Shown here: in pieces, positions 3,137-40,200 of the stretch
Layout: each line of letters opens with the position of its first letter
Position numbering within the stretch: position 1 is the first letter of the stretch
Origin: a virus
Reading direction: 5' to 3' (one strand)
Virus record (IMG/VR): IMGVR_UViG_3300048921_000145
Length of the DNA: 59,663 nucleotides
Translations under genes and position numbers: made by a program
Notes under the pieces: generated by a model
Told to the model about the DNA's origin: nothing
Database searches by the model: none
The model's input: only the letters and a program-made list of their open reading frames with translations

Positions 3137-3622
3137 ATGAGCACCAAAGCAAATCCCGAGGCGGTCGTCCTCGGTGCCTTGTTTGATTTCGCCGGGCACC
3201 TGCGCACGTCCGACATCATCAATCCCCTGAGCGGTATCGATGGCTTCGCTAAGTTGCGCAAGTTGTCCGCCGATGAAGTGCTGACCCTGACCTGGCGCGA
3301 ACAGCTCGACAGCCTGCGCGATCAGCCGAAGATTCTGCCGACCGACAGTGAACTGGTCAGCGACCTGGTGTTGTTGGCTGACGCCTTCCAGGATGCCGAC
3401 CCGAGCGCCGACAACCATGTGTTCGACGTGCTGAACAATGCCGCGCTGCGCCTGCGCCAAGTCGTCGAGCTGGTGGTTGATTTGGAGCTTGCCGCCGAAA
3501 CCCTGCGCCGTTACGAGGTGTTGCACCGCGCCAAAGGCACGACGGAAAGCACGGAAAAAGCCGAAGTCAATGCCGCGCTGGCTTTTCGCTTCGAGTCGAC
3601 CATCAAGGCAGTGGCGCCATGA
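3137..3622 (+). CDS. Hypothetical protein (161 aa); first gene of the rightward early operon
   Basis: AAGAGG 8 nt upstream of ATG 3137. The upstream extension to 3056 looks non-coding. Confidence 0.75.
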   Translation: MSTKANPEAVVLGALFDFAGHLRTSDIINPLSGIDGFAKLRKLSADEVLTLTWREQLDSLRDQPKILPTDSELVSDLVLLADAFQDADPSADNHVFDVLNNAALRLRQVVELVVDLELAAETLRRYEVLHRAKGTTESTEKAEVNAALAFRFESTIKAVAP

Positions 3623-4047
3623 CCAAACTCGGCCCGGATCATTACCGCTACGTCGACGAACTGGATCAGAAAGGCCTGGAAGTCACCTGCGAGAAATACG
3701 TGGTCGTCGGTGAAACCGCTCAGTGCTGGTACATCGTGAGCGACTTCCACAACTCGCTGTTTGGCGGCTCGCAGCGTGAATCCCTGCTCAAGAAGTACCG
3801 CAAGCGCGTGCTCAAGGAAGGCGGCGAGCATGGCCGGCGCTTCGCCTACACCGACAAGGCGCTGGCGCTCAAGTCGTACAAGCACCGCAAGGACTGGCAG
3901 ATACGCCACTCCCAGCTGTCGCTTGAACGGGCCAAGGCCGCGCTTGCGTATTTTGGCGACACCAGGGGAGAAAGCATCGTACCCAAAGCCGACAAGCTAG
4001 TGATCCCATGCCAGTACGTCCAGGACATGAACTGGAGCGAGTGCTGA
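3619..4047 (+). CDS. Hypothetical protein (142 aa)
   Basis: ATGA overlap with the upstream gene. Confidence 0.75.
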   Translation: MTKLGPDHYRYVDELDQKGLEVTCEKYVVVGETAQCWYIVSDFHNSLFGGSQRESLLKKYRKRVLKEGGEHGRRFAYTDKALALKSYKHRKDWQIRHSQLSLERAKAALAYFGDTRGESIVPKADKLVIPCQYVQDMNWSEC

Positions 4048-6341: not shown

Positions 6342-6514
6342 CGCCAGAGCAGCAAAAGACCGTCAACGAACGCCAGGCCGCCGGCTTCAAGGTGGTGGGC
6401 AAGGATTTCGACGGTACGCTTCGCATCGTCAAGGGCGCCGACCAACGCGTGGTGTTCACCGATGGTCGCGAGAAGCGTGGGCAGCATGACTTTATACGGC
6501 GGTGGCAGGCATGA
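6338..6514 (+). CDS. Small hypothetical protein (58 aa, GTG start)
   Basis: Below the ORF-track cutoff. It fills the gap exactly, with overlapping start and stop codons at both ends. Confidence 0.5.
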   Translation: MTPEQQKTVNERQAAGFKVVGKDFDGTLRIVKGADQRVVFTDGREKRGQHDFIRRWQA

Positions 6515-6840
6515 GCACAGAGTTCAAACACACAAGCGTGCTGATGTCTGAGTACGATCAGTTTCTTGATGAGGGTCGCCAGCGCGCATGGAAAGAGCTT
6601 GAGGCCGAATGCCGTCGGCTCAAGGCTGCGAACAAGATCACCATCGACGGCAACGAGTTCGAGTGTCGCGAGCTGGTCGGTCGGGCAATCCGTAGTTTGA
6701 AAGGTCCGAGTAAGTATCGCAGCAAGCGCGGAACCGAGCGTTGGGTGCTGGTGCGTAACGCATTCGGCTGTGGCAGCACTGTGGCGAATGGCCTGTGCCG
6801 TGAGTTCGGCTTTGATCCTGACGAGGAACTGCGCTCATGA
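6511..6840 (+). CDS. Hypothetical protein (109 aa)
   Basis: ATGA overlap at 6511-6514. Confidence 0.7.
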   Translation: MSTEFKHTSVLMSEYDQFLDEGRQRAWKELEAECRRLKAANKITIDGNEFECRELVGRAIRSLKGPSKYRSKRGTERWVLVRNAFGCGSTVANGLCREFGFDPDEELRS

Positions 6841-7022
6841 ACTGGAAAGGCTCAGGCCCGCACGCCATCAGCAGCGACGAGGGTTACGTTATTGCGCGTT
6901 ACCGCGTGGCCGGCGTCGAATACTTTCGCCCCAGCCTGCGCGGTAGCTTTATCGGCGCACCGTTGAAGGACAAGGATGCAGCCAAGCGCGTGTGCATCGA
7001 TCACCACAAGAAGGGGGCATAA
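6837..7022 (+). CDS. Small hypothetical protein (61 aa)
   Basis: Coupled ORF. Confidence 0.55.
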   Translation: MNWKGSGPHAISSDEGYVIARYRVAGVEYFRPSLRGSFIGAPLKDKDAAKRVCIDHHKKGA

Positions 7023-7210
7023 TGCCGAGTCCAATCCTGAAGCACTTCGACGGGGCGCTGTTACCCATCAACCTGCGTGCCATCGCCAAGCCTTTCGAGG
7101 ATATGGCGAGCACATTGGACGCATTGCTGGATGAAGGCCCGGAGAAGTCCACGGCCCTGCGCAAGCTGCTGGAATCGCTCGATTGCGTGATACGCGCAGC
7201 ACGCAAGTAA
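7022..7210 (+). CDS. Small hypothetical protein (62 aa, start MPSPILKHF)
   Basis: ATG 7022 overlaps the upstream stop. Confidence 0.6.
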   Translation: MPSPILKHFDGALLPINLRAIAKPFEDMASTLDALLDEGPEKSTALRKLLESLDCVIRAARK

Positions 7211-7261
7211 TGGCAATAAGCCCTAGCATTCGCTGGGGTGTTTTAATACACTGGATGCCTT

Positions 7262-7338
7262 GCAGTTGTAGCTCAGTTGGTTAGAGCGCTCGCCTGTCAC
7301 GCGAGAGGTCGCGGGTTCAAGTCCCGCCAGTTGCGCCA
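7262..7338 (+). tRNA. tRNA-Asp (anticodon GTC)
   Basis: Hand-folded cloverleaf. Acceptor GCAGTTG/CAGTTGC, anticodon arm CTCGC-CTGTCAC-GCGAG, T-arm GCGGG-TTCAAGT-CCCGC, encoded CCA. Confidence 0.9.
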
Positions 7339-7344
7339 GTTTAT

Positions 7345-7420
7345 TGCGTGGTAGTTCAGTCGGTAGAACAGCGGGCTCATATCCCGCATGTCGCAGGTTC
7401 GAGTCCTGCCCTCGCAACCA
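7345..7420 (+). tRNA. tRNA-Met (anticodon CAT); anticodon stem carries the GGG/CCC signature of initiator tRNAs
   Basis: Acceptor TGCGTGG/CCTCGCA (one T-T mismatch), D-arm GTTC/GAAC, anticodon arm GCGGG-CTCATAT-CCCGC, T-arm GCAGG-TTCGAGT-CCTGC, encoded CCA. Confidence 0.85.
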
Positions 7421-7425
7421 GTTTC

Positions 7426-7501
7426 GCCGTTATAGCTCAGTCGATAGAGCGCCTGCCTTGTAAGCAGGATGTCCGGGGTTTGATTCCTCGTTGCGGCACC
7501 A
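7426..7501 (+). tRNA. tRNA-Thr (anticodon TGT)
   Basis: Acceptor GCCGTTA/TTGCGGC, anticodon arm CCTGC-CTTGTAA-GCAGG, T-arm CGGGG-TTTGATT-CCTCG, encoded CCA. Confidence 0.85.
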
Positions 7502-7504
7502 GAT

Positions 7505-7579
7505 TGGCGAGTGGCTAAGTGGTAAAGCGCGGAACTGTTAATTCCGTCATCGCACGTTCGAATCGTGCCTCGCCAGCCA
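7505..7579 (+). tRNA. tRNA-Asn (anticodon GTT)
   Basis: Acceptor TGGCGAG/CTCGCCA, anticodon arm CGGAA-CTGTTAA-TTCCG, T-arm GCACG-TTCGAAT-CGTGC, encoded CCA. Confidence 0.85.
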
Positions 7580-8268
7580 TGTCCTGAAGCACCGTCGCGG
7601 CTCCCCAGCTGCCTTCCCGCCCATGCGGGGCTCATCTTTATCGAAGTGTGATCTGTTATAGCAGCGCAGCTTGTGGATGAAACCAGTGGACCATGACCGC
7701 CGATTACAATGATGGTTGTTATTTGTAGCCCTGCGGAGTGAACGGGAGGCGTTGAAGAGACTCCACCACAAGCAGATCACACCTCAATACAGATGAAGTT
7801 ATGGCGACAAGCCGGATAGAGCCCCGGCCATTTGTATTCAGTGCTGTCCTGGGAGGCGGTCCCGCGCGGGAGTTTGTGCCGCTGTAAGTCCAGGCTGTAT
7901 CTGAATGCTCTCCCCCAGTCAGTGAAAGTCCCAGCCCGATCAAGCATCGCCGGGCCTATGCAGGGAGCGCCACAGGGAGAGCATCCAGATGCAGATGAAC
8001 GCCCAGGCTGATGGGACTATTCAGTTTGACGGGAATACGGGTTGATGTGGCAGCCCTTGATAACGACCGTGCTGGGTAGGTGAGAATCGACGAAGCCACA
8101 AGGCCGCAAGGCACTGAGCCACAAAGCCGGGGATCAGCGCCGGCCATCTGCAACAAGCTCAGAGGAAGTGAAACATCATCACGATGCGGATCAGGCCTCA
8201 ACACACCGCCAGCGATGGCGCCGGATCAGGTTACCGGCATAGCCCCGCCTCAACCGCGGGGCTTTTTT
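7580..8268 (+). ncRNA. Candidate large structured non-coding RNA (~690 nt) co-oriented with the tRNA array; family unknown
   Basis: No credible ORF in any frame within an otherwise gap-free genome. Contains nested perfect helices, e.g. 7646-7655/7773-7782, 7670-7676/7766-7772, 7834-7841/7901-7908 and 7907-7914/7975-7982. GNRA-loop hairpins at 8103-8112 and 8207-8220. Ends in an intrinsic terminator. Confidence 0.5.
8241..8268 (+). terminator. Rho-independent terminator
   Basis: AGCCCCGC-7 nt loop-GCGGGGCT followed by T6. Confidence 0.8.
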
Positions 8269-8275
8269 ATGCCTG

Positions 8276-8310
8276 TTGCGTAGTGCCCGCAACGGTTCGA
8301 TAATCAAACC
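8276..8310 (+). promoter_or_regulatory. Candidate late promoter with conserved box: TTGCGT-N17-GATAAT inside GTTCGATAATCAAACC (copy A)
   Basis: The 16-mer at 8295-8310 is identical to 16189-16204. Hairpin GTTGCG/CGCAAC (8275-8293) lies just upstream. Sits 31 nt before the terS ATG. Confidence 0.5.
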
Positions 8311-8341
8311 TACTGTTTCCACTTCACACCCGAGGCTATCC

Positions 8342-8929
8342 ATGACCGTACCGGCCAAGAAGGCGCCCGTCAAGCGCGCCCCGCGCAAACCCAAGATCGA
8401 GCCCCCCAAGGCCAAGGCCGTGCGCAAGCCTCGCGCGCCCAAGGTCAAGAAGCCCATCGGGCGCCCATCCTCGTACACCCAAGACATCGCCGACCTGCTG
8501 TGTGAAGGCCTCGCGTCCGGCCTGTCAATGCGAACCGTTTGCAAAGCTGAAGACATGCCCGCAATGGCGACGGTGTTCCGCTGGCTGCGCATCAATCAAG
8601 AGTTCAGAGAGCAGTACACGCGCGCCAAGCAAGAATCGGCCGACGCCCTGGTCGAAGAAATGATCGACATTTGCGACGACGGAACCAACGACTGGATGGT
8701 GACGCACGACAAGGACGGCGAAGAGAACGGCTACAAGATCAACGGTGAGCACGTCACGCGTTCGCGCCTGCGTGTGGAAACCCGCAAGTGGATCGCGGCC
8801 AAGCTGAAGCCGAAGGTCTACGGCGAGAAAGTCGACGTCAGCCATGGCGTTCAACCAGACAACCCGCTGCTGGCCTTGATGGGCCAAATGGCCGGCAAAG
8901 TCCTCAAACCGGTGGCCGATGATGAATAA
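8342..8929 (+). CDS. terS: Terminase small subunit (195 aa)
   Basis: Lys/Pro-rich N-terminus followed by GRPSSYTQDIADLLCEGLASGLSMRTVC...ATVFRWL HTH and a RLRVETRKWIAAKLKPKVYGEK tail, typical of this TerS family. Located upstream of terL. Confidence 0.8.
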   Translation: MTVPAKKAPVKRAPRKPKIEPPKAKAVRKPRAPKVKKPIGRPSSYTQDIADLLCEGLASGLSMRTVCKAEDMPAMATVFRWLRINQEFREQYTRAKQESADALVEEMIDICDDGTNDWMVTHDKDGEENGYKINGEHVTRSRLRVETRKWIAAKLKPKVYGEKVDVSHGVQPDNPLLALMGQMAGKVLKPVADDE

Positions 8930-9152
8930 AGCGCGCTCCTACGTGAAATCTGTGAAGTCGCGCGGGGCATTGGCCTGCGCTTTTCTCCCACGCGCATGGG
9001 GCAAGTTGCTGTGCGGCCTGAATTGGCATGACGACGTATCGACTGTCGACCCGCGCCGGGCGCGCAGCGTCATATCCGGTGGCGACATCAATATCCACTT
9101 TGTCACCACTCGCTGCCGCCGCTGTGGCAACACTCATAGGACGGTGCGCTGA
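8919..9152 (+). CDS. Small Cys-containing hypothetical protein (77 aa)
   Basis: ORF overlaps the terS stop and is coupled (TGATG) to the next gene. Contains an RCRRCGN motif. Confidence 0.45.
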   Translation: MMNKARSYVKSVKSRGALACAFLPRAWGKLLCGLNWHDDVSTVDPRRARSVISGGDINIHFVTTRCRRCGNTHRTVR

Positions 9153-9568
9153 TGAACATCTACATCGATTGCGAGTTCAACGAGTTCCGCGGTGCGCTGA
9201 TTAGCATGGCGTTGGTGGCGCAGGATGGCCGCGAGTTCTACGGCGTGCTGCATTGCGCCGACCCTGGGCCATGGGTGAAAGAGCATGTGCTGCCGGTGCT
9301 GGTCGAGCTGCCCATGTCGTATGACTGCTTTCAAAGTGAGCTGACTGAATACCTGGCTCAGTTCGAGCGCGTGAACATCGTCGCCGACTGGCCCGAGGAC
9401 ATCGCCCACTTCTGCGCTTCCTTGATCACCGGCCCCGGCTATCGGATGGCCACGCCACCGCTGACCATGGAAGTGCGCCGCGACCTCGATGCTGTGTCGA
9501 AGCTGCCGCATAACGCGCTGGAAGATGCCCGCGCCATTCGCCTGCTGGCCATCGAGAAGGGTCTGTAA
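9152..9568 (+). CDS. DEDDh-type 3'-5' exonuclease (DnaQ/RNase T-like, 138 aa)
   Basis: Motifs IDCEF (Exo I), IVADWPEDI (Exo II) and HNALEDA (Exo III with His). Confidence 0.75.
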   Translation: MNIYIDCEFNEFRGALISMALVAQDGREFYGVLHCADPGPWVKEHVLPVLVELPMSYDCFQSELTEYLAQFERVNIVADWPEDIAHFCASLITGPGYRMATPPLTMEVRRDLDAVSKLPHNALEDARAIRLLAIEKGL

Positions 9569-11393: not shown

Positions 11394-11834
11394 ATGACTC
11401 AAAGTTACGTTGGCACAAAGCTGGTCAAGGGCCAGCCCATGAATCGCCTGGACTACAACCTGTACCGTGGCTGGGTTCTGCCCGAGGATGAGAACGGCGC
11501 CGATGCCGGTTATCTGGTCGAGTACCTGGATGGCGGCAAGCCCAACCACAGCGCGCACGCAGGTTACATCAGCTGGTCACCAGCCGAGCAGTTCCAGAAC
11601 GCCAACGTCGCGTTGGGCGAAATTGATCACTTGGCTCCGCACCAGCAGCGCGTCGTCGCCGAGCTTGAGCAGTTAGCCGACCGTGTGACCAAGTTGGAAT
11701 CGTTCCTCGCCACGCCGTTCTACGCCAGCCTGGACGAGGACGAGCGCACGCTGCTGAAGATGCAGGCCGACGCCATGGTGCTGTACATGGGCATCCTCAA
11801 CACCCGCGCCAACAAGTTCGGGGGTGGCAAATGA
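11394..11834 (+). CDS. Hypothetical protein, N4 gp49 / Sf6 gp66-like N-terminal domain (146 aa)
   Basis: The pattern KGQPMNRLDYNLYRGWVLPEDENGADAGYLVEY...GYISWSPAEQF resembles that family (from memory). Confidence 0.65.
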   Translation: MTQSYVGTKLVKGQPMNRLDYNLYRGWVLPEDENGADAGYLVEYLDGGKPNHSAHAGYISWSPAEQFQNANVALGEIDHLAPHQQRVVAELEQLADRVTKLESFLATPFYASLDEDERTLLKMQADAMVLYMGILNTRANKFGGGK

Positions 11835-12184
11835 GTAATCCAGCCACCGACAACCTGAACTTCTGCGACGCCCTGCGCGCGATCAAGGCCGGCAAGCGTG
11901 CCCAGCGTGCCGGCTGGAACGGCAAAGGCCTGTTCGCCTTCCTTCAGCCAGGCAGCGTCCACGGCCCTTACCTTGGCCCCAAGTTTCAATTGGCCATGGA
12001 GTCGGCGCCCGATGAAGGCGAAACCATCGACGGCCTGAGCGTGAGCTTGTTCCATACCAACGCCGCCGAGCACACCGCGATTCGTTACCCGCAGCTGTGC
12101 CTGTCCTTCCCGACGGGCACCTTTGGCGCGTGGGCACCGAGCCAGACCGACATGCTCGCCAGTGACTGGAAGATCGTCGAATGA
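11831..12184 (+). CDS. DUF2829-family protein (Tad2-like, candidate anti-Thoeris sponge; 117 aa)
   Basis: FCDALRAIKAGKRAQRAGWNGKGLFAFL N-terminal signature and C-terminal SQTDMLASDWKIV, both typical of DUF2829. Confidence 0.7.
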   Translation: MSNPATDNLNFCDALRAIKAGKRAQRAGWNGKGLFAFLQPGSVHGPYLGPKFQLAMESAPDEGETIDGLSVSLFHTNAAEHTAIRYPQLCLSFPTGTFGAWAPSQTDMLASDWKIVE

Positions 12185-31264: not shown

Positions 31265-34200
31265 GTGGCTGAAAACCTTTTTCTCAAGTCGCCCTCCGCG
31301 ATTGCCCCCACTGCCACGGCGCCCACTGCGCCGCCCATGCCCAACCTCCAGACCCTGCCACCGCGCAGCTCCAGTGCCGGTCCGCTGACCTCCAGCGCCG
31401 CGACCGTCATGAGTCAAGGCCTGTTGCCGCCACCAGACCTTCAGCCCCTGTTCGAGAAATACTCCGCTGAAACCGGCGTGCCGCTCAATGTGTTGTCGGC
31501 CCTGGCGCAGCAGGAGTCGGGCTACAACCCCAATGCCATTGGTGAAATGACCAAATGGGGCCAGGCCAAAGGCATGCTGCAAAACCTCGACAGCAACGCC
31601 AAGAGCTTGGGGATCAACCCGTTCAATGCGGAACAGTCGATTGCCGGCGCGGCGCGGCAGCTGCGCGAGCGACTGGACAAGGGTTACAGCATGGAAGATG
31701 CGGTGAAAGCCCACTTCGGGGGTGATAACCGTGAGCAGTGGGGCGAGAAGACCAACGCCTACGGGCAAGAGGTGCTGGCCAAGGCCGGGATCATCGGCGA
31801 CCAGCTGATGGCCGGAAAGCAGAAGGCCGCACCTGTCTCGCCGGGCAATGACCTGGCCGCGATTCAAGCGGAAATGGATGCCAAGGAGCCAGGGCGTTAC
31901 AAGGTGATCGACCCGGCTGATATCGCTCAGCGCGACCAGCAGCGCGCCACCCTCGCCAGCGGCAAGGACGCTTTGCAGAATGCACAGCAGGCTACGGGCG
32001 CCTATCAAGCCCCTTCGCCGCTGACCCTGACCAATCAGCAGGCCGTCGAAGACCGGGTGAACAGCGCGCCAGCGCCCTCGCCACTGACGCCGACCAACCA
32101 GGAACTGGTGCAAAAGGGCATGGCGCCGGTCGATACACGCCCGGAAGATGGCTTTGCCGCCGCCACCGGCAAACAATTGCAGAACTTCGGCCCGCACATG
32201 AAAGACGCCGTGGCTGGTCTGGTGCGCATGGGCAGCGAGAGCATCGACAACGCCACCCTGGTCGGCAACGCGGGTAGCTCCGGCATCATCCAGCGCATGC
32301 AGGATAATGGCGACATCATCATGGTGCAGAACGATCGGGGGCAGAACACCCCGACCCTGCGCAACGGCAAGCTGGCCGACGAAGCGAACATTGCCGCGTT
32401 CATTCGCGCCAATGCCGGCGAGCTGATGTCGCCTGATGAGGCTGGCGCACTGATCGGCATGAAGCCGCGCGCCGTCACCGAGTGGGCGCAGAAGACCGCC
32501 AAGCAAGCCAAGCTCGACACCATCGAGGTACGCCCGGATGGCCCGCTGGCCAAATACGGCAGCATGATCATTGGCTCGACGGCGGAAATGATCCCGGCGC
32601 TGGCCGCTTCGGCGATCACCCGTAACCCGGCCGTGGGCATGTCGTTAATTGGCGGCCAGGTCACCGGGCAAGGCTACAACAAGGGCCGATCCGGCGGGCT
32701 GAACGCGCAGGACGCTGGTAATTACGCCATCGCGCAGGGCATGGCCGAGGCCATCCCGGAATACCTGCCGATTCATGCCATCCTCGAACCCGGCAAGAAC
32801 TTCTTCAAGGGCCTGCTCAAGGCCGGCGCTGCCGAGTCGGTGCAGGAAGGCGTGACCCAGATCATCCAGGATGGTCTGGACAAGGGTTCGATTGATCCGA
32901 ACATGACGTGGGCGCAGGCGCGGCAGAACCTGGCCGATGCCATGATCACCGGTGCCGGCGCCGGTATGGCGCTAAAGGCGGGCGTGCACGGCCTTCAAAA
33001 AGCCGCCGATGCGATCCCGACGCGCGACCGTGAAGCCGAGGCGGCCGCCGCCGCTCAGGCCCAGCCCGCTCCCGCAGCCGAGCCCCAGCCACCACAGGCG
33101 CCCGAGGCTGCAACTGTCGCGCCGGCGCCAGCCCCCACCGGTCCACTGACCCGTGCCGCGCAGCACTACGTCGCGCCCGAGCCAGTAGTAGCCCCCGCAG
33201 CAGCAGAGCCAGCTGGGGAGCCGGTCACCGTGCGCAGCTCCGACGGTGAAATGGCCGGCACCCTGCAGGACTACCAAGACCACGGCCAGGGCCAGTGGAC
33301 CGCGCGCGTGCTGGCCGACGACGGCAACGCCTACGACTTCACCCAAGACGATGGCGTACAGCTGGAACGCGCCAGTGCGCCGATCGCGCCAACGGCTGAG
33401 CCAGCGCAACCGGCGCAGGCCACCCCTGAGCCAGCACCAGCGGACAACATCCCGACGCTGACCGATGTAGTAGCGCCTGAAGCCTCGCCCGACTACACGT
33501 CGATGGACGTGCCGTCGTTGCGCGCCGAACTGAAAGCCACCGCGACCGCGATCAAGGCCGACCCGAAGAACAAGGCGTTGACCAAGCGGCGCAGCGCCAT
33601 TGAAAAGGCAATCAAGGCCGGCATCAACACCGCCGACAAGGCGCCGGCTGTCACCGAACTGACCGGCGACAAGATCGATAAGCAATGGTCGCGCTTCGCC
33701 GATGACTCGGGCAGCCTCAACGTGCCACGCGCCGACATGCCGCAGATCAAGGCCGAGCACCGTGGCGCGATGGTCAACTTTCTCAATGCGCGCGACATCG
33801 CCCACACGCAGGAAGAAGTCCCGGCCAGCAGCCTGAAGCCAACGCAGGAAGAGTTCAGCCCGGCCAAGGTCAAGAAAGCCTTGGGTTATGAAGGCGGCGA
33901 CCGTTCGATCCTGATTTCCAGCGACAACCATGTGCTCGACGGCCATCACCAGTGGCTGGCCAAGGTCGATGGCGATCAGCCGGTGAAGGTCATTCGCCTG
34001 GACGCACCGATCCAACAACTGCTCGACACCGTGCGCGAGTTCCCCAGTGCCGAGACGGCCAATGGTGCGACCGCCGCACCAGCGCCAACAGCTGAGCCGA
34101 CTAATAGCTTGTCGCGCACTGCCAGTTGGGCGATCCGCGATAAGGCGACCGGCGAAGTGGTCATGGAAACCTTCGATAAGAAGAAGGTCGACGCGCTGAA

Positions 34201-37200
34201 CACCGACAAATACGAGGCGGTGCCGATTCAGCAGCACCTGGCCGAAGTCAATCAGTCGATCAAGGCCGGTGATGAGACGGGTAAGATCAAGCCGGCCGCT
34301 GCAACAGAACCGGCCAAACCTGCATCAAAACCGGTGGAAACTGCATCGCCAGCGCCTAAACCTGCATCAGCAGTGACCGAACCGGCATCGAAACCGCAGA
34401 CGCCGCAACAGAAGGCCAAGGCCCGCGCCGAAGCCCAGCGTCAGGCCGCGCGCGACCGTATGGGCGGAATCAAGGAGGGCGAGCAGTTCATCCCGTCCGC
34501 TGACGTGGGTTACATCAGCGGCGGTGAAACCTACACTGTCGACAGCATCGACAGCAAAGGCAACGTCTACGTTAAGCGCAGCGGCACCAACAGCGGCACC
34601 CACCTGTCGCACGCCGACTTCAACGGGGCCGAGCATAAGGGCGTGACCTTTGCCAAGGTCGAGCCAGCAGCCCCGGCAACCCGTGCAGAAACTGCACCCG
34701 TTCAACCAGCCATGGAAACACCAACAACCCCGGCCGAAACCGCCGCTGAACTGGTGAAGTCCGCCGAGTACGGCGCTAGCAACAAGCTGGTAAGCCAAGA
34801 CCGCGCGGCCGAACTGCGCGAGCGCCTGAAGAAGAAACTCAACGGCTCGCAGCTGAACAGCGGCATCGATCCGGAAATTCTCGCGCTCGGCACCGAGCTG
34901 GCGGTGTTCCACATCGAGGCCGGCGTGCGTCAGTTCGCCGCCTTCGCCAAGACCATGGCCGAAGACCTAGGCCAGCCGCTGGAGAAAGTTCGACCGTACC
35001 TGCGCAGCTGGTTTAACGGTGCGCGCGACATGATGGAAGACGCCGGCCACTCGGTCGACGGCATGGACAACGCCGACACCGTGCGCGCCGAACTGGCAAA
35101 GCTGGATCAGGCGCCGGCCACTGAGGCAAAAAGCGCCCCCGTTCAAACCGCCCCGGCAACTACCGATAAATCCTCGGCAGTTCAAGAACCAGCCGAAGAA
35201 TCACCGACCCTAGCCACTGGCGTGTACAGCCATAAGCAGCACCCGGAAGTGACAGCTACGGTCAGCCAGACGGATAAGGGCTACGCTATTGAGTGGGCGC
35301 CTGATGATGTTCAGGAGTTCAAAGGTAAACATGCGGTCGCCAAAGCACAGGCGGCGCTATCTAAAGAGGGTTACACCCTCAACGAGGAATCTGATGCAAC
35401 AAGTCCCAGCGAGCGTGTGGAACCAAATCGCCCAGACCGAACCGCTGCAAAATCCGTCGATGCGCCTGCTGTTCGCAATGAGCCAGCCGCAGCTGGACGC
35501 CGCACTGGCGAGCCAGGCGCAAGCGCTGTCGACAGCGGGGCAGACGGACAGCGTAATCAACGCCTACCAGCTGATGGCGCCGCTGCTGGCCGAGAATCAG
35601 GCGATCAGCGCGTACATCAACCGGACGGGGCATTCCGACCTACGCTCGGCGATGCCGGAAGTGTTGAACCCGCCCGAAGCGGTGGCGATAGCGACACAGG
35701 AAAACCCGTTGAGCGCGAACGAGCAGCGCACATTGTTGACACTGCTCCGGCCACTGATGCCGACGAGTTCAGTCAACGTCTAGCCGCGCAAAAGCAAGCG
35801 ACCGGCACCAAGACCGTTCGCGGCGACCAAGCCAACATCGATAAAGCCTTGCCCCTCCTGCTGGAGCCTCAGCGCGGCGACGTGCTCAAGGCCGAGCAGC
35901 GTTTCGCTGTGGGCAACGGCATGCTGCTCACCAACGGCACCGGCACCGGCAAGACCGCCAGCGGCATGGGCCTCGTTGTGCGCTCGATCAACGCCGGCAA
36001 GCCCAACGCCCTGGTGGTGGTGCCAAGCGACAAGATCGCCTCGGACTGGATCAAGTTCGCCAAGATGCTGGGCGTGAACCTGAAGCAACTGGAAAGCACC
36101 AGCGACAACGGCACAGACGGCCAGGTCATCACCACCTATGCCAACTTCGGCGCCAACGATAGCTTAGCCCTGCGCGACTGGGATCAGGTCGTGGCCGATG
36201 AGGCGCATTACCTGTCGAGCAACGAGAAGGGTGAAGGCACGGGCGCGCTGGCCAAACTGCAAGGCTTGACCGGTCACCCGGATGGCTTCTATCAGTGGGT
36301 GCGTGAGCGCAACCCGAAAGAATGGGGCGCCTACAAGGAGGCAATGAACGCCAGCCGCGACGCAGCGAAAGATTCCGCCACCACCCAAACGCAGAAAGAC
36401 CAGCTGGCCGAAGTTGAAGGTAAGCAAAAGGCGCTGTGGGACGCTATCGAGAAGCCGGCCAAGAAAGCCTGGCAAGACCGCTGGGCCAAGCAGCAAGACC
36501 TGCCGAAAACCCTGTTCCTCTCGGCCACCCCGTTCGCCTACGTCAAAAGCGTGGACTACGCCGAGGGTTATCTGTTCGATTACGTTGATCCGGCCGAGCG
36601 CTTCAGCAACAAGGCGGAAATAGCCGGTTCGGCCTACAACAGCGGCGATGCGCGTGAAAAGTTTTTCATGCAGCACTTCGGCTACCGCATGCGTTACAAC
36701 AAGTTGACCGCGCCGGAAGCCGGGGTGGATTCCGAACTGATGGAGCAAGGTTTTAACCAGCACCTGAAGGACATCGGCGCCCTATCGGGCCGACGCCTGG
36801 AAGTGCCGTATGACTACGACCGCAAGTTTGTGATGGTCGATGACGCCGTGGGCCAGAAGATCGACCAAGGCCTGGCCTTCCTGCGCGAGCATGCTGACGG
36901 CAAGTACCGCAAGGTCTATGACGCGGTCATGGCGACCTTCGACTACCAGCGCCGCATGTACCTGCTGGAATCGATCAAGGCCAAGGCCGTGGTGCCAATG
37001 ATCAAGGAGCACATGGCGCTGGGCCGCAAAGTGGTGGTGTTCCACGACTACAACAAGGGCGGCGGCTTCGATCCGTTCAACGCCGGACTGGCCAGCATTA
37101 CCGAGGCGGATGTCCGCGCGCTGGCCCGCGAAGCCTTTGCCGCGCGCCCGGACATCTTCAAGAAGATGGACCTGACCGGCCTGTACTCGCCGATTGAAAC

Positions 37201-40200
37201 CCTGTCGGCGGCCTTTCCTGACGCACTGTTCTTCAACGGCACCGTGCCGAAAGCCAAGCGCCGCGCCAATGCCGACACCTTCAACGACGACACCAGCGGC
37301 AAGGACTTGATTGTCTTGCAGTCGGACGCCGGCCGCGAAGGCGTGAGCTTGCACGACACCACTGGCCAGCACATGCGCGTGCTGATCAACCTCGGCATGC
37401 CAGGCAAACCGGTGGCCGCGATCCAGATCGAAGGCCGCACCTACCGCACGGGCCAGGCCAGTGATGCCGCGTTCCGCTACCTGACCACCGGCACCGCCTG
37501 GGAAGCCAGCGCCTTTGCCAGCAAGATCGCCGAGCGCGCCTCGACCGCTGAAAACTTGGCGCTGGGCACCGAAGCCCGCGGTTTGAAACAATCCTTCATC
37601 GACGCCTACAACGGCGCCGAAGACCTGGCCCCGAGCGCCGAGGATGGCAAGGGCGGCAAGGCACTGGATCGTGAGTTGGGCGCCGCTTCGACGCTGACCC
37701 CGTTCAACCGGGCCAAGGCCTTTTACTTCGCACAGCAGAAGAACACCAAGCGCCGCGACCAGCGCGAAGGCACCGACTATTTTGCCACCCCGGAACCGGT
37801 CGGCTTCAAGATGGCCGAGTGGGCGAACATCCAGAAGGGTGACGACGCGCTGGAACCGTCGGCCGGGCATGGCGCCATCGCGCGCTTCTTCCCGCCGCAA
37901 ACCAACGTCACCATGGTCGAGCCGAGCTATGACCTGTCGCAGCGGGCGGCCCTGGCCAACGGCAACGCGCGGATCATCAACGACAACTTCGAGTCGTTGC
38001 ACCGGACCAACAAGTACGACGCCGTGGTGATGAACCCGCCTTACGGCAACGGCGGCAAGACCGCCATCGAGCACGTCGCCAAAGCCGCACAGCACCTGCG
38101 CGAAGGCGGCCGGATCGTCGCCTTGATTCCGCGCGGCGGCCTGACTGACAAGCGCCTGGCATCCTTCTTGGAAAGCGAAGAGGCGCAGAGCCTGCACCGA
38201 GTGGCCACCTTTGTCATGCCGGCCTCGACCTTCGAGCGCGCCGGTACGTCGGTCAACACGCAGGTCATCGTGCTGGAGAAACACAGCAACCCGGACGACG
38301 CATTGAACATCCATGCGCGCACGGTCGACCTGAGCAATGCCCAATCGACTGGCGAACTGTTCGACCGCATCGAGCACTTGGACCTGCCCGACCGCATGCC
38401 GAGCAGCAAACCCGAGCCGAAGCCGGTCATGATTGAGCACGTCACCGGCAAGGGTAAAACCATCACCGGTATCGTGCGCACCGACCTGACCAAGGATGAA
38501 GCCAAGGAAATCGACCCGTACACCTTCCCGAAAAACGGTGGCTTCTTCATCCGATCCAAGTACCTGGGCGACGGTAATCGCCTGTCGGTGGCCACCCCGG
38601 TCGGCGAACCGGCTTCGCATGAAGAAGTACGCGACGCCATCACCCAAGGCCCGTTCGGCCCGGTGGTCAAGAAGCTGATCGATGCCGGGCACATCGTGGT
38701 TCACGGCAACGTGCAATCGCTGCCCGACGGCGTCACCCCTGTGCGCGGCATGCAGGCGGTCACTACGCCCGACGGCACTGTGCACTTGATCGCAGCCAAC
38801 CTGACCCCGGGCAATGCCAACGGCGTGCTGCTGCATGAAATGTTTCACAGTGGTGGCGAGCAGCTGGTCGGCTCCAAGCGCTGGGCCGAGCTGATGCAGC
38901 GCCTGGACGCTTTGCACCGTCAGGCCGAGCAATCCACCGGCAAGGCCCGTGAAGTGTTTGACCGCGCCCGTGAGCGCGTCAAGCAGGCGCAGGATCAAGG
39001 CGCGGTTGCCGATGGCATGACTGCCGAAGAGTTCGGCGCCTACGCCATTGAAGAGCACGCGCAGCTGCCGGCCGCCTTCCGCAAGTGGGTCGACGACCTG
39101 GTGGGCGCCATCAAGCACTGGCTGTTCAGCCGCTACGGCAAGCAACTGGGCCAGGTCACCCCGGCGCAACTGCGTGCCATGGCCAAGGATGCGTTGGTGT
39201 CGATGGCCCTGGCCAAGCGTGGCGAGCTGTTCGGCCCGGCCGGGACCATGTTCAGCGTCAAGTTGTCGGAGCACTTCGACGACATCAAGAACAATGCCGA
39301 CGCCACCAGTTTCAGCGACAAGATCGGTCCGGTGAAACTGCCGCAGCGGATGGCGGATCGCTGGCGCCAACTGACCGATAACCTCGGTCTGCGCATTCGC
39401 CAGGCAGCCGTCGACCGTTACGCGCCACTGATGCGCAACGACCAAGCCCTGTACGGCGCCGACACCCTGGAAGGCTCGATTGCCTCCAGTTCGTGGGTGT
39501 TGGCACGCATGAGCCAGGCCGCAGGCGGCGCGGTAGATGCCTTGCTGCATCACGGCCGCATCTACCTTGATCCGGTGGAAAAGGTCATTGACCTGCACGA
39601 CAACAGCAAAGGCTTGGGCGACACCCTGAATAAGCTCGGTAGCGTGGCGGAAATGACCCGTTTCATGGGTTGGATCGCGGCCAACCGATCCAAGCGCCTG
39701 CTCGGCGAAGGCCGTGAAAACCTGTTCACCCCGGCCGAAATCGAGGCCGGTATCAAGTTCAGCGGTGGCAAACTGGCTGACGGCAAGAGCCGGAGCATTC
39801 TCTATCAGCAAGTGTGGAAAGAGTTCCAGCAGCACCGCGACGACGTGCTGGGCATTGCCGAGCAGTCGGGCATCATCACCCCTGAGCAGCGCGCTACCTG
39901 GAGCGATGAGTTTTATGTACCGTTCTATCGGGTGATCGACAGCGAAAACCTCGGCGGCCCATCCTCGGGCGGCGGTGGTCTGTCGCGTCAGCAGGCATTC
40001 AAAAAACTCAAGGGCGGCAAGCAGCACCTCAACGACTTGCTGGAAAACACCCTGCTCAATTTCCACCACCTGGTGCAAGCCAGCCTGAAGAATCAGGCCG
40101 CGACGCAGGCCATGGACAACGCCGAGCAGCTGGGCATTGCCGACAAGACTACCGAGGCGCACCGCGACAAGAAGGCCAGCACCTTCGTCATGGAGAACGG

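Follow-up and report, generated by a model that had tools for sequence, protein, structure and literature searches.

Two kinds of described RNA stand among those closest to the locus considered here. GOLLD and ROOL are large RNAs of phages and prophages that lie near tRNA islands, the linkers of GOLLD sometimes holding tRNAs (PMC12286853), and YrlA, with the other bacterial Y RNAs, bears a tRNA-like multi-arm domain on a long stem formed by its 5' and 3' ends and occurs in bacteria and phages (PMC4201824). The locus itself is a gene-free stretch of 689 nucleotides (nt; positions 7580–8268, + strand) in a viral DNA of 59,663 nt, the IMG/VR record IMGVR_UViG_3300048921_000145, which was analysed as a whole and is called the window below. 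It begins one base past a tRNA-Asn gene that ends at 7579 (+), on the same strand, and an earlier note made from the sequence had proposed it as one large, tRNA-linked structured RNA. We establish that compensatory change on the + strand has preserved two long stalks, a number of hairpins and both copies of a scaffold with hairpins C and D (the C–D scaffold), and that the inserts of stalks and scaffolds are exchangeable cassettes. It is highly probable that this is a real, + strand, modular structured non-coding RNA locus, and we favour, with somewhat better than even confidence, the fuller account that it forms the non-coding 3' part of a tRNA transcription unit, a string of independently folding modules whose products are most likely co-transcribed, processed tRNA-like RNAs. 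The non-coding nature, the same-strand tRNA linkage and the maintained RNA structure of the earlier proposal thus stand; a single RNA of GOLLD size does not, with 44% of the stretch shared among relatives and the modules shuffled.

As regards context, the analogy with GOLLD and ROOL drawn in the earlier note is apt: in each case a phage non-coding RNA adjoins tRNAs and is co-oriented with them, and next to the conserved parts there is a variable region in which tRNAs can lie. However, the locus matches neither Rfam model, it has a chain of 78–224 nt units and stalks of ~20 base pairs (bp) in place of one architecture of 500–800 nt, and its hosts appear to be Pseudomonas and possibly Burkholderia, whereas GOLLD and ROOL belong to Lactobacillales, rumen or marine lineages. 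To the enigmatic large RNAs of phage tRNA islands it adds a different, proteobacterial-phage solution.

The resemblance to YrlA lies in the stem-borne tRNA-like domain and in T-arm-like hairpins within the slot inserts of several relatives. Considering, however, that the Rfam YrlA model scores genuine tRNAs only (7307–7450, 22 bits against a gathering score of 69) and neither stalks nor scaffold, that the stalk bases lack the Ro-binding motif GNCGAAN0-1G (GACGAAG at 8089, the lone match, falls within a unique insert, and by our own arithmetic ~0.3 chance matches are expected in 689 nt), and that no TROVE/Rsr gene was recognised by Pfam or PHROGs among the 26 open reading frames (ORFs) scanned, a subset of those in the window, we reject identity with YrlA. 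Moreover, the scaffold loops pair by Watson–Crick complementarity and not through T-loop/D-loop motifs. No description of the scaffold sequences was found in the literature searched, and overlap with an unnamed entry among the 10,006 candidate structured RNAs of IMG/VR (PMC10690425) is possible. Loci of this kind are known, both as structured RNAs that accompany phage tRNAs and as stem-borne tRNA mimics; the architecture and the scaffold family appear to be undescribed.

Stalks kept by compensatory change, and the modules around them

BLASTN of 7580–8300 against 50,697 GenBank phage records returned no homologue of the stretch, only fragments of 22–47 nt, some of which are in hindsight pieces of the scaffold (AH02, Jeremy). 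Metagenome and genome contig collections gave 0 matches with clade-specific patterns, among which the widespread scaffold motif was not included, and the 15-mer TCAGATGCAGATGAA was too unspecific a search pattern, yielding random matches. Relatives were found in IMG/VR and in Logan/ENA assemblies by means of the small terminase and DNA patterns. Eleven contigs of ~61–63 kb share parts of the locus (L081 (= L001), L082–L085, L086 (= L003), L210, L213, L219/L220 and L222), and one Logan contig is 100% identical to the window over 7000–8400; the homologous regions that the earlier note had proposed to collect by BLASTN came from these assemblies and not from GenBank phages.

Pairwise BLAST and anchor-based dissection revealed a mosaic in which conserved modules alternate with slots, and what fills a slot is unrelated from phage to phage. 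The shared skeleton amounts to ~306 of the 689 nt (44%), the remaining 56% being lineage-specific insert, and consists in the window of module A (7581–7642), stalk 1 (7633–7655/7773–7795), a GCCGG hairpin (7811–7828), module B (7846–7895), stalk 2 (7895–7914/7975–7994), hairpin C (8001–8015), hairpin D (8126–8144) and the terminator (8241–8268). Within ~3 Mb of collected loci the window inserts 7656–7772, 8016–8125 and 8153–8240 have no homologue, and the insert 7915–7974 is common to the window and L083 only. From one relative to the next the modules change order, occur in extra copies or go missing, and tRNAs and ORFs may stand between them; in L222, tRNA-Thr and tRNA-Asn lie downstream of the modules instead of upstream.

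The stalks carry the strongest evidence. Stalk 1 (+ strand) pairs 7633–7655 with 7773–7795, in 22 pairs and a conserved U–C mismatch, around an insert of 117 nt (7656–7772); stalk 2 (+) pairs 7895–7914 with 7975–7994, in 19 bp and one A–C mismatch, around an insert of 60 nt (7915–7974). In every relative the sequence just past UCUUUAUC pairs with that just before GAUACAGAUG to form stalk 1, and the sequence past CUGUAUC pairs with that before GAUGCAG to form stalk 2; the distal stalk sequences are entirely different in each lineage, and the pairing is kept. In register-preserving skeleton alignments (A1, with 10 relatives, for stalk 1; A2 for stalk 2) 81% of the stalk 1 cells are paired as against 35–41% in slid controls, and 95% of the stalk 2 cells as against 27–48%; both sides have changed in 11/22 pairs and 10/20 pairs, respectively, and for either stalk 0/500 shuffles reach the score. 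Stalk length is 17–24 bp in nearly all relatives despite unrelated sequence (19–24 bp for stalk 1 in most), single internal mismatches are conserved, and even the conserved base of stalk 2 covaries (UG..CA to GG..CC in L210 and L219). G–U pairs exceed A–C mismatches by 21:7 in stalk 1, 19:3 in stalk 2 and 40:10 overall, and therefore it is the + strand that folds, which favours RNA over either a cruciform of double-stranded DNA or a product of the minus strand.

With 22 and 19 pairs the two stalks reach the near-continuous duplex of ~20 bp by which stems of the RNase III type are judged. They resemble the RNase III stalks of rRNA operons and T7 early transcripts in being duplexes of about two turns (17–24 bp) that flank structured RNA, here in a predicted polycistronic tRNA transcript, but differ in that their bases are conserved and double as strands of neighbouring closing helices, for which rRNA operons have no counterpart.

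Every helix listed in the earlier note is indeed complementary and, since complementarity in a sequence of 58% G+C is weak evidence, our case rests on the comparison with relatives, in which stalks and hairpins covary, the compensatory change that the note had proposed to look for. Two of its helices, 7646–7655/7773–7782 and 7907–7914/7975–7982, turn out to be the distal, strongly covarying parts of stalks 1 and 2. The twin GCCGG/CCGGC hairpins it described are also real: 7811–7828 covaries within the clade (GCCAG/CUGGC, GCUGG/CCAGC) and 8126–8144 in the wider family; hairpin C, too, shows compensatory changes. By contrast, the helix 7834–7841/7901–7908, proposed to close a second domain, was rejected, since it overlaps stalk 2 and its pairing is lost in L081 and L082. 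The inner helices of the first domain, the pseudoknot 7928–7936/8006–8017 and both GNRA hairpins are sited in inserts and not in the shared skeleton, and 7848–7852/7890–7894, 7855–7859/7879–7883 and 7860–7863/7868–7871 fall inside a near-invariant core where covariation is uninformative.

That core is module B (7846–7895, +), a three-tier hairpin of ~50 nt that reads GUCCUGG-GAG-GCGG-UCCCGCGCGGGA-GUUUGUG-CCGC-UGUAAGU-CCAGG, with UGUAAGU and GUUUGUG invariant and unpaired. It was found in this phage clade only and is 94–98% identical in 9 loci (7 distinct contigs), in phages whose small terminases, wherever core and terminase were both compared, share only 57–77% amino acid (aa) identity (L001 68%, P0007/L222 67%). 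Its inner loop varies (GCGC, UAU, CAU, CGCG) and the CCC/GGG stem is kept, as expected of a hairpin loop; its folding energy is not unusual (z = +0.7), and because it is near-invariant its helices lie beyond covariation testing. Module A (7581–7642, +) comprises a leader, GGCUCCCCAGCU (7599–7610), and the hairpin CCCGC-CCAU-GCGGG (7616–7629), followed by UCUUUAUC, and is 82–92% identical in 10 relatives.

Coding was looked for in all six frames, and the claim that 7580–8268 holds no credible ORF was borne out: the longest overlapping ORF has 82 aa, each frame carries 6–10 stops, and from 7580 up to the ATG of the small terminase gene terS (8342) no ORF exceeds 82 aa. We reject a protein-coding reading on these grounds and because length differences are not multiples of three and substitutions have no period of three; the protein-like periodicity that the earlier note had named as a contrary sign was sought in module B, whose variable columns show none (11:9:9, p = 0.87). 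In L081 all three minus frames of module B are open, and in other relatives other frames are.

The description 'highly structured' fits parts of the stretch and not the whole. The minimum free energy of the + strand of 7580–8268 is -259.6 kcal/mol versus -253.1 ± 7.1 for shuffles (z = -0.91), the - strand of the whole 689 nt has z = -1.94, and two sub-domains only, 7633–7799 (z = -2.5) and 7893–7996 (z = -4.1), beat shuffles. As the note had foreseen, the family is one that Rfam does not hold: cmscan of the window against Rfam 15, at gathering scores and at E <= 10, gave tRNAs and noise and no curated family, as did six relatives at E <= 1, and thirteen loci of the wider scaffold family together with a compact 78-nt unit gave tRNAs, one neighbouring Proteo-phage-1 RNA and sub-threshold noise (for example isrJ, 26 bits, on a terminator). 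Neither ARAGORN nor the Rfam tRNA model, with introns allowed and thresholds lowered, found a tRNA cloverleaf in 7580–8268, and no T-loop-like motif occurs there. A group I intron or intron-containing tRNA was rejected in the absence of an ARAGORN call with introns allowed and of an Rfam intron match, and a hammerhead, brought to mind by CUGAUG in loop C and in one recurrent insert, was rejected because the A9/GAAA core is absent and no Rfam ribozyme matched.

The borders of the unit are set by its neighbours. Upstream lies a tRNA array, Asp-GTC, Met-CAT, Thr-TGT and Asn-GTT (7262–7579, +; called by ARAGORN, 63–72 bits on the Rfam tRNA model), in which all four genes encode the 3' CCA. The terminator reported at 8241–8268 (+) was confirmed by a consensus scan as a G+C-rich hairpin of 8 bp followed by a T-run; it would close the tRNA/RNA unit, and all terminator-like sites within 6500–9000 are on the + strand. 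It is followed by a promoter-like TTGCGT-17 nt-GATAAT (8276–8304, +), read from the sequence and conserved in relatives; this site fell under the -35 threshold of the scan tool, hence its absence from the consensus scan, and it is the boundary of the RNA unit, outside the unit itself. Terminator and downstream promoter-like stretch are 84–91% conserved and present in all relatives.

Coding sequences also enter the locus, which is an insertion hotspot for HNH and other ORFs. In L001 an ORF for an HNH-type endonuclease (3484–3879) stands between tRNA and module A, and in L003 a 191-aa ORF (1343–1918) replaces stalk 1 through stalk 2 and ends within module C (..DADERPG*).

The C–D scaffold and its distribution

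Unit II (7990–8152, +) is a member of the C–D scaffold family. Its closing helix joins UGCAGAUG (7990–7997) to CAUCUGCA (8145–8152) by 8/8 Watson–Crick pairs and holds hairpin C (8001–8015), with the loop GGCUGA (8006–8011) and a G–A mismatch as outermost pair, a unique insert of 110 nt (8016–8125) and hairpin D (8126–8144), with the loop GGAUCAGCG; the two loops are complementary, GCUGA (8007–8011) to UCAGC (8134–8138). Unit I (7786–7838, +) is a compact copy in which a closing helix of AAUACAGAUG (7786–7795) and CAUUUGUAUU (7829–7838) encloses the hairpin GCCGG-AUAGAGCC-CCGGC (7811–7828), a hairpin of the C type and an insert both being absent. Positions 7786 and 7838 covary (A–U, G–C or G–U across relatives), and unit I-type variants in the clade pair GCUUA with UGAGC. 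The covariance model R1, trained on 45 rows that included the window's own unit II skeleton and did not include unit I, matched unit I at 7778–7842 (29.2 bits, E = 4e-5 in the whole window) and unit II in two hits, 7980–8058 and 8065–8158, split by the 110-nt insert, the better of which reaches 24.0 bits and the other 14.6 bits, with no further match in the 59.7-kb window; the window therefore holds two scaffold copies.

The scaffold is widespread. When IMG/VR was scanned with the module C pattern CAGATGAANGNNNAGGCTGAT and coding false positives (QMKAQAD-type repeats) were set aside, at least 92 sites were left, at least 67 of them with module D, GCCGG-(A)GAUCAGC(N)-CCGGC-CAUCUGCA, 78–224 nt downstream, and at least 61 distinct complete units were obtained from IMG/VR contigs. 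The layout of the unit is as follows: a closing helix (G)AUGCAGAUG/CAUCUGCAU(C), also written (U)GCAGAUG/CAUCUGC(A); 2–3 nt; hairpin C, with a 5-bp stem and the loop GGCUGA; a hypervariable insert; and hairpin D, whose stem likewise has 5 bp and whose loop includes UCAGC (GAUCAGC), 0 nt before the closing helix. Among the matches listed, units range from 78 nt, the smallest that stand alone, to 224 nt, and inserts reach ~170 nt, an over eightfold range of length, sometimes with a tRNA.

In the skeleton alignment A7 (45 sequences) 91% of cells are paired as against 21–42% in slid controls; both hairpin stems show compensatory changes, the closing helix is 86% paired and the loop–loop helix 96%. 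Because the first search pattern prescribed the sequence of the C loop, A7 is blind to loop–loop covariation, and it is the set found in a second, module D-anchored scan that supplies it: GACUGA with AGAUCAGUA in L360 (G–C to A–U) and CGCCAU with GAUUGGCA in L393 (two pairs exchanged). Among the matches listed, the second scan also adds further scaffold subclasses that keep the closing helix and the GCCGG/CCGGC stem (L243, L350, L362, L370, L388 and L395; L355, L391 and L416), one of which has AWUCGCGC as its D loop and differs in the 5' half, the other being a minimal form directly 3' of a tRNA with a D loop GGACCUCU.

In cultured phages the scaffold occurs almost exclusively in Pseudomonas phages (Aurca01, MR13/MR15, PS-1, AH02, Jeremy and others), with weaker matches in Burkholderia phages, and always in unannotated gaps. 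Among the matches listed, tRNA genes lie within 1.5 kb of 20/92 units, the neighbouring tRNAs are on the strand of the unit in 31/31 cases, four tRNAs start 7–10 nt past the end of a unit, and one, the tRNA-Val of L271, is nested inside the scaffold. The commonest upstream genes in the same set are those for a Q-antiterminator-like protein, NinG and RusA, and the commonest downstream gene is that for a lambda-S-type holin; an intrinsic terminator follows the closing helix by 4–11 nt in 18/61 units, which would thereby have a discrete RNA 3' end, and precedes the unit in 10. Units also occupy early-region gaps (Aurca01, MR15).

At minimum, the scaffold is a new family for curation of the Rfam type and accounts for recurrent gene-free gaps in Pseudomonas phage genomes. 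Since it is present in cultured, genetically tractable Pseudomonas phages, transcripts, processing, partners and phenotypes are directly testable.

Two other RNA candidates adjoin or enter scaffold units. A Proteo-phage-1 RNA (RF03044, 67.9 bits; L265 6334–6414, - strand) lies ~66 nt upstream of a unit; it is a curated proteobacterial phage RNA of the same kind of non-coding region, but it lies clear of the scaffold, and the window and its clade lack it. Sequence upstream of the L265 unit recurs in L272 and L277. An insert of ~150 nt (AAGUGUAAGACCUGAGGGAUCGCGGGAAUCGUGGCCGG...CUAAUAGUC) is found inside the scaffold of L085 and L222 and of the unrelated L242, L288, L296, L299, L303 and L317, and may be a conserved RNA in its own right.

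tRNA-likeness and competing explanations

The connectivity of the scaffold is that of a tRNA: the closing helix takes the place of the acceptor stem, hairpin C that of the D-arm, the insert that of the anticodon/variable region and hairpin D that of the T-arm, and the C and D loops are complementary, as are the D and T loops at the tRNA elbow. The cassettes point the same way. The slot 1 insert is a tRNA-like cloverleaf in L084 (a 97-nt ARAGORN 'tRNA-Ile' ending in CCA), L081 (which the Rfam tRNA model scores at 31 bits and which carries an insertion of 58 nt), L213 and L222; the L082 insert is also scored by ARAGORN, the inserts of L219 and L085 have T-arm-like hairpins, and a degenerate tRNA sits beside tRNA-Met in L081. 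True tRNAs sit before, after or inside modules in the relatives and the wide family. A 71-nt cloverleaf of three hairpins that fills slot 2 in L082 is found again in slot 1 of L213 and L222, and in L222 its CCGC/GCGG middle arm and 7-nt loop have given way to CCUCC/GGAGG and a 3-nt loop; since the arm was replaced by compensatory change and the loop reduced to 3 nt, shape is selected and not decoding. Judging from topology, tRNA mimicry appears to be the most economical reading.

We suggest that the unit would be transcribed together with the tRNAs and stop at 8241–8268, that the two-turn stalks could serve as processing stems of the RNase III/rRNA-operon kind and that the tRNA-like junctions might be handled by tRNA-maturation enzymes, the outcome being stable small tRNA-like RNAs. 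The near-invariant loops, closing helix and 50-nt core would engage a conserved Pseudomonas host factor, and the variable inserts would be a displayed or protected payload; decoys for tRNA enzymes or nucleases, an RNA chaperone or carrier, and a regulator are candidate roles. This mechanism of processing and tRNA mimicry we put forward tentatively, at a little under even chances. More tentative again is the wider proposal that phages of Pseudomonas, and possibly of Burkholderia, share in the scaffold a widespread and so far undescribed class of tRNA-mimic 'chassis' RNA, which together with the cassettes on the stalks and the 50-nt core would form a modular system for RNA display or processing, expressed alongside the phage tRNAs. 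Such a chassis would hold its insert (stem-loops, tRNA-like domains, whole tRNAs) where the anticodon arm would be, and might exploit or decoy host tRNA-handling or anti-phage machinery, or assemble by loop–loop contacts as GOLLD and ROOL do. Small autonomous modules, a conserved scaffold of tRNA topology that tolerates more than eightfold insert variation, and cassette-swapping two-turn stalks set the locus apart. Were the tRNA-mimic reading true, it would bear on how phages manipulate tRNA maturation or tRNA-targeting defences, and the locus would offer a natural insert-tolerant RNA scaffold for engineering.

Several points weigh against the account of a tRNA-linked, processed unit. The region is wholly absent from five other relatives (L211, L214, L224, L226 and L227), so that the locus is accessory and dispensable. 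A consensus scan found no promoter upstream of the tRNAs, and the hairpin of module A with UCUUUAUC makes a weak terminator-like site between the tRNAs and the remainder, which in L086, where a full T-run follows the hairpin, becomes a strong terminator. Transcript ends, processing and stability are all deduced from sequence, and a part for RNase III or RNase P is suggested by two features, stem length and topology. In module B, and in much of the scaffold, the sequence varies too little for pairing to be proved. Further, each closing helix draws its 5' strand from nucleotides that also form the 3' side of the stalk before it (5 nt are shared between unit II and the base of stalk 2, and the whole 10-nt strand between unit I and stalk 1), so that the pairings compete; the stalk partner of 7786 is mismatched in the window and L084, whereas its closing-helix partner covaries. 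Stalk and closing-helix folds may alternate, for instance before and after stalk cleavage.

Among other explanations, the locus might be a cis-acting leader of the late operon that controls read-through or termination, or a promoter-proximal transcript; the put RNAs of HK022, the lambda 6S RNA and the StxS small RNA of Stx phages are the systems to compare. Wide-family units typically occupy the interval from Q, NinG and RusA to holin, which is the late-leader region of lambdoid phages and in which Stx phages also keep tRNA genes; like the lambda 6S and StxS leaders they are often bracketed by terminators and adjacent to tRNAs, and the window locus ends in a terminator at the early/late junction just 5' of terS. 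To our knowledge there is no sequence relationship between these leaders and the scaffold. No Q gene is recognisable in the window, where terS and terL lie downstream behind their own promoter-like site. What makes a late leader unlikely is that the window and all 11 relatives have a separate conserved promoter-like TTGCNT-17-GATAAT past the terminator and ahead of terS, so that the RNA is not obviously the leader of that operon. Units also occur in early regions and abutting tRNAs, related phages manage without the locus, and an over eightfold range of insert length, with tRNAs among the inserts, is hard to square with an element that modifies RNA polymerase. We hold it still less likely that all 689 nt form a single ornate RNA of the GOLLD/ROOL kind, possibly an oligomeric assembly. 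It would share with them the phage context, the adjoining tRNAs, the nested tRNAs of relatives' variable regions and the mixture of conserved and variable parts, and its complementary loops and palindromic GAUC-containing loops could mediate intermolecular contacts; but no Rfam family, GOLLD and ROOL included, matched at E <= 10, no long-range helix joins the modules, the modules occur singly elsewhere as stand-alone units of 78 nt, their order and number differ between close relatives, and the stretch is 56% unique insert with an unremarkable energy over the whole region (z = -0.91).

Decay of a once longer tRNA array, with stalks left over from the acceptor-stem and flank pairings of dead tRNA genes and no function of their own, would account for the tRNA-like cloverleaves in slots (L081 at 31 bits, the L084 'tRNA-Ile'), for the degenerate tRNA in L081 and for the dispensability of the locus in some relatives. 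It is nevertheless very improbable, given that neutral decay would not leave 17–24 bp paired when the sequence has turned over completely, a 50-nt core 94–98% identical or a scaffold conserved across unrelated phage types, and that the arm swap in the L222 cassette signals selection for shape. Least probable of all is an element acting as DNA, whether a recombination linker, a hairpin-bounded mobile cassette (MITE-, REPIN- or attC-like) or a pac region. The scaffold ends are imperfect inverted repeats (TGCAGATG..GCTGAT/ATCAGC..CATCTGCA), cassettes move between slots, ORFs insert in the region, and it lies just upstream of terS with three GGATCAG motifs within 100 nt; yet G–U pairs exceed A–C mismatches by 40:10, one strand only being able to form the helices, and units are strictly co-oriented with tRNAs (31 to 0 among the matches listed) and with terminators. 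No target-site duplications flank the units, the interiors of copies are unrelated, unlike those of MITE families, and no integrase, transposase or reverse transcriptase was identified (Pfam/PHROGs) among the 26 window ORFs scanned. Strand bias, G–U pairs, missing target duplications and unrelated interiors led us to reject the MITE/terminal-inverted-repeat idea, and a Dam/GATC-rich pac site was likewise rejected, since the 6 GATC sites of the region are no unusual number, as many being present in 19% of windows of equal size.

The 3' tail, the phage and neighbouring genes

The 3' tail of the locus (8153–8240, +) is unique to this phage, with no homologue found in the collected loci. In relatives the same slot holds either a gene for a protein of 97–101 aa or a conserved module of ~120 nt. 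The gene for the protein, whose N-terminus (MEQYMMIKRFL..CACFGPS..) is signal-peptide/lipoprotein-like, stands between module D and the terminator in L081 (= L001 4520–4819), L082, L083, L084, L086 and L210 (8339–8634), and neither the window nor L085 has it; a similar signal-peptide protein adjoins scaffold units in the unrelated loci L243 and L248. The ~120-nt module (AGCAACGCAAAACCGUAUGAGCCCUGGUGGAAGGCGUGGGAGG...GAGCCCACA), which is non-coding, follows module D in L210 (8165–8275) and also occurs in L213, L219 and L222; it ends in its own terminator in L210, and L084 has a terminator there without the module. The window lacks it, and no Rfam family matches it. GGATCAG occurs in 11 copies in the window, three of them within 100 nt (8131, in the D loop; 8188 and 8223, in the 3' tail), and the clustered heptamers may repeat the D-loop motif or be sites for proteins.

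By gene content the window, JGI contig 3300048890|Ga0496086_0000135, is a podophage of the Bcep22/Lessievirus-like type. Its major capsid gene has 72–75% nt identity to those of Ralstonia GP4/Gervaise, Burkholderia BcepMigl/DC1 and Pseudomonas Itty13, and it encodes a P22-type portal and an Sf6-type small terminase, the latter identified by PHROGs and by Pfam Sf6_terminase; RecT/YqaJ, RdgC, a cI-like helix-turn-helix protein and a 3,546-aa ORF are among its other genes. Inside this last ORF (31265–41905) ARAGORN calls a tRNA-Ala(GGC) at 37837–37912 (- strand), a call that is probably spurious because the Rfam tRNA model stays below its gathering score there. Between the small and large terminase genes lies an RNase H-like gene (9152–9565; PHROG 2259, E = 7e-28), and GIY-YIG endonuclease genes occupy the terS–terL position in the relatives L214 and L222. 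Just past terL, two adjacent genes (11394–12184) match Pfam Sequestin (PF21825) and Tad2-like (PF11195); they are candidate anti-defence 'sponge' proteins, and the pair is also found in L213, L219 and L222.

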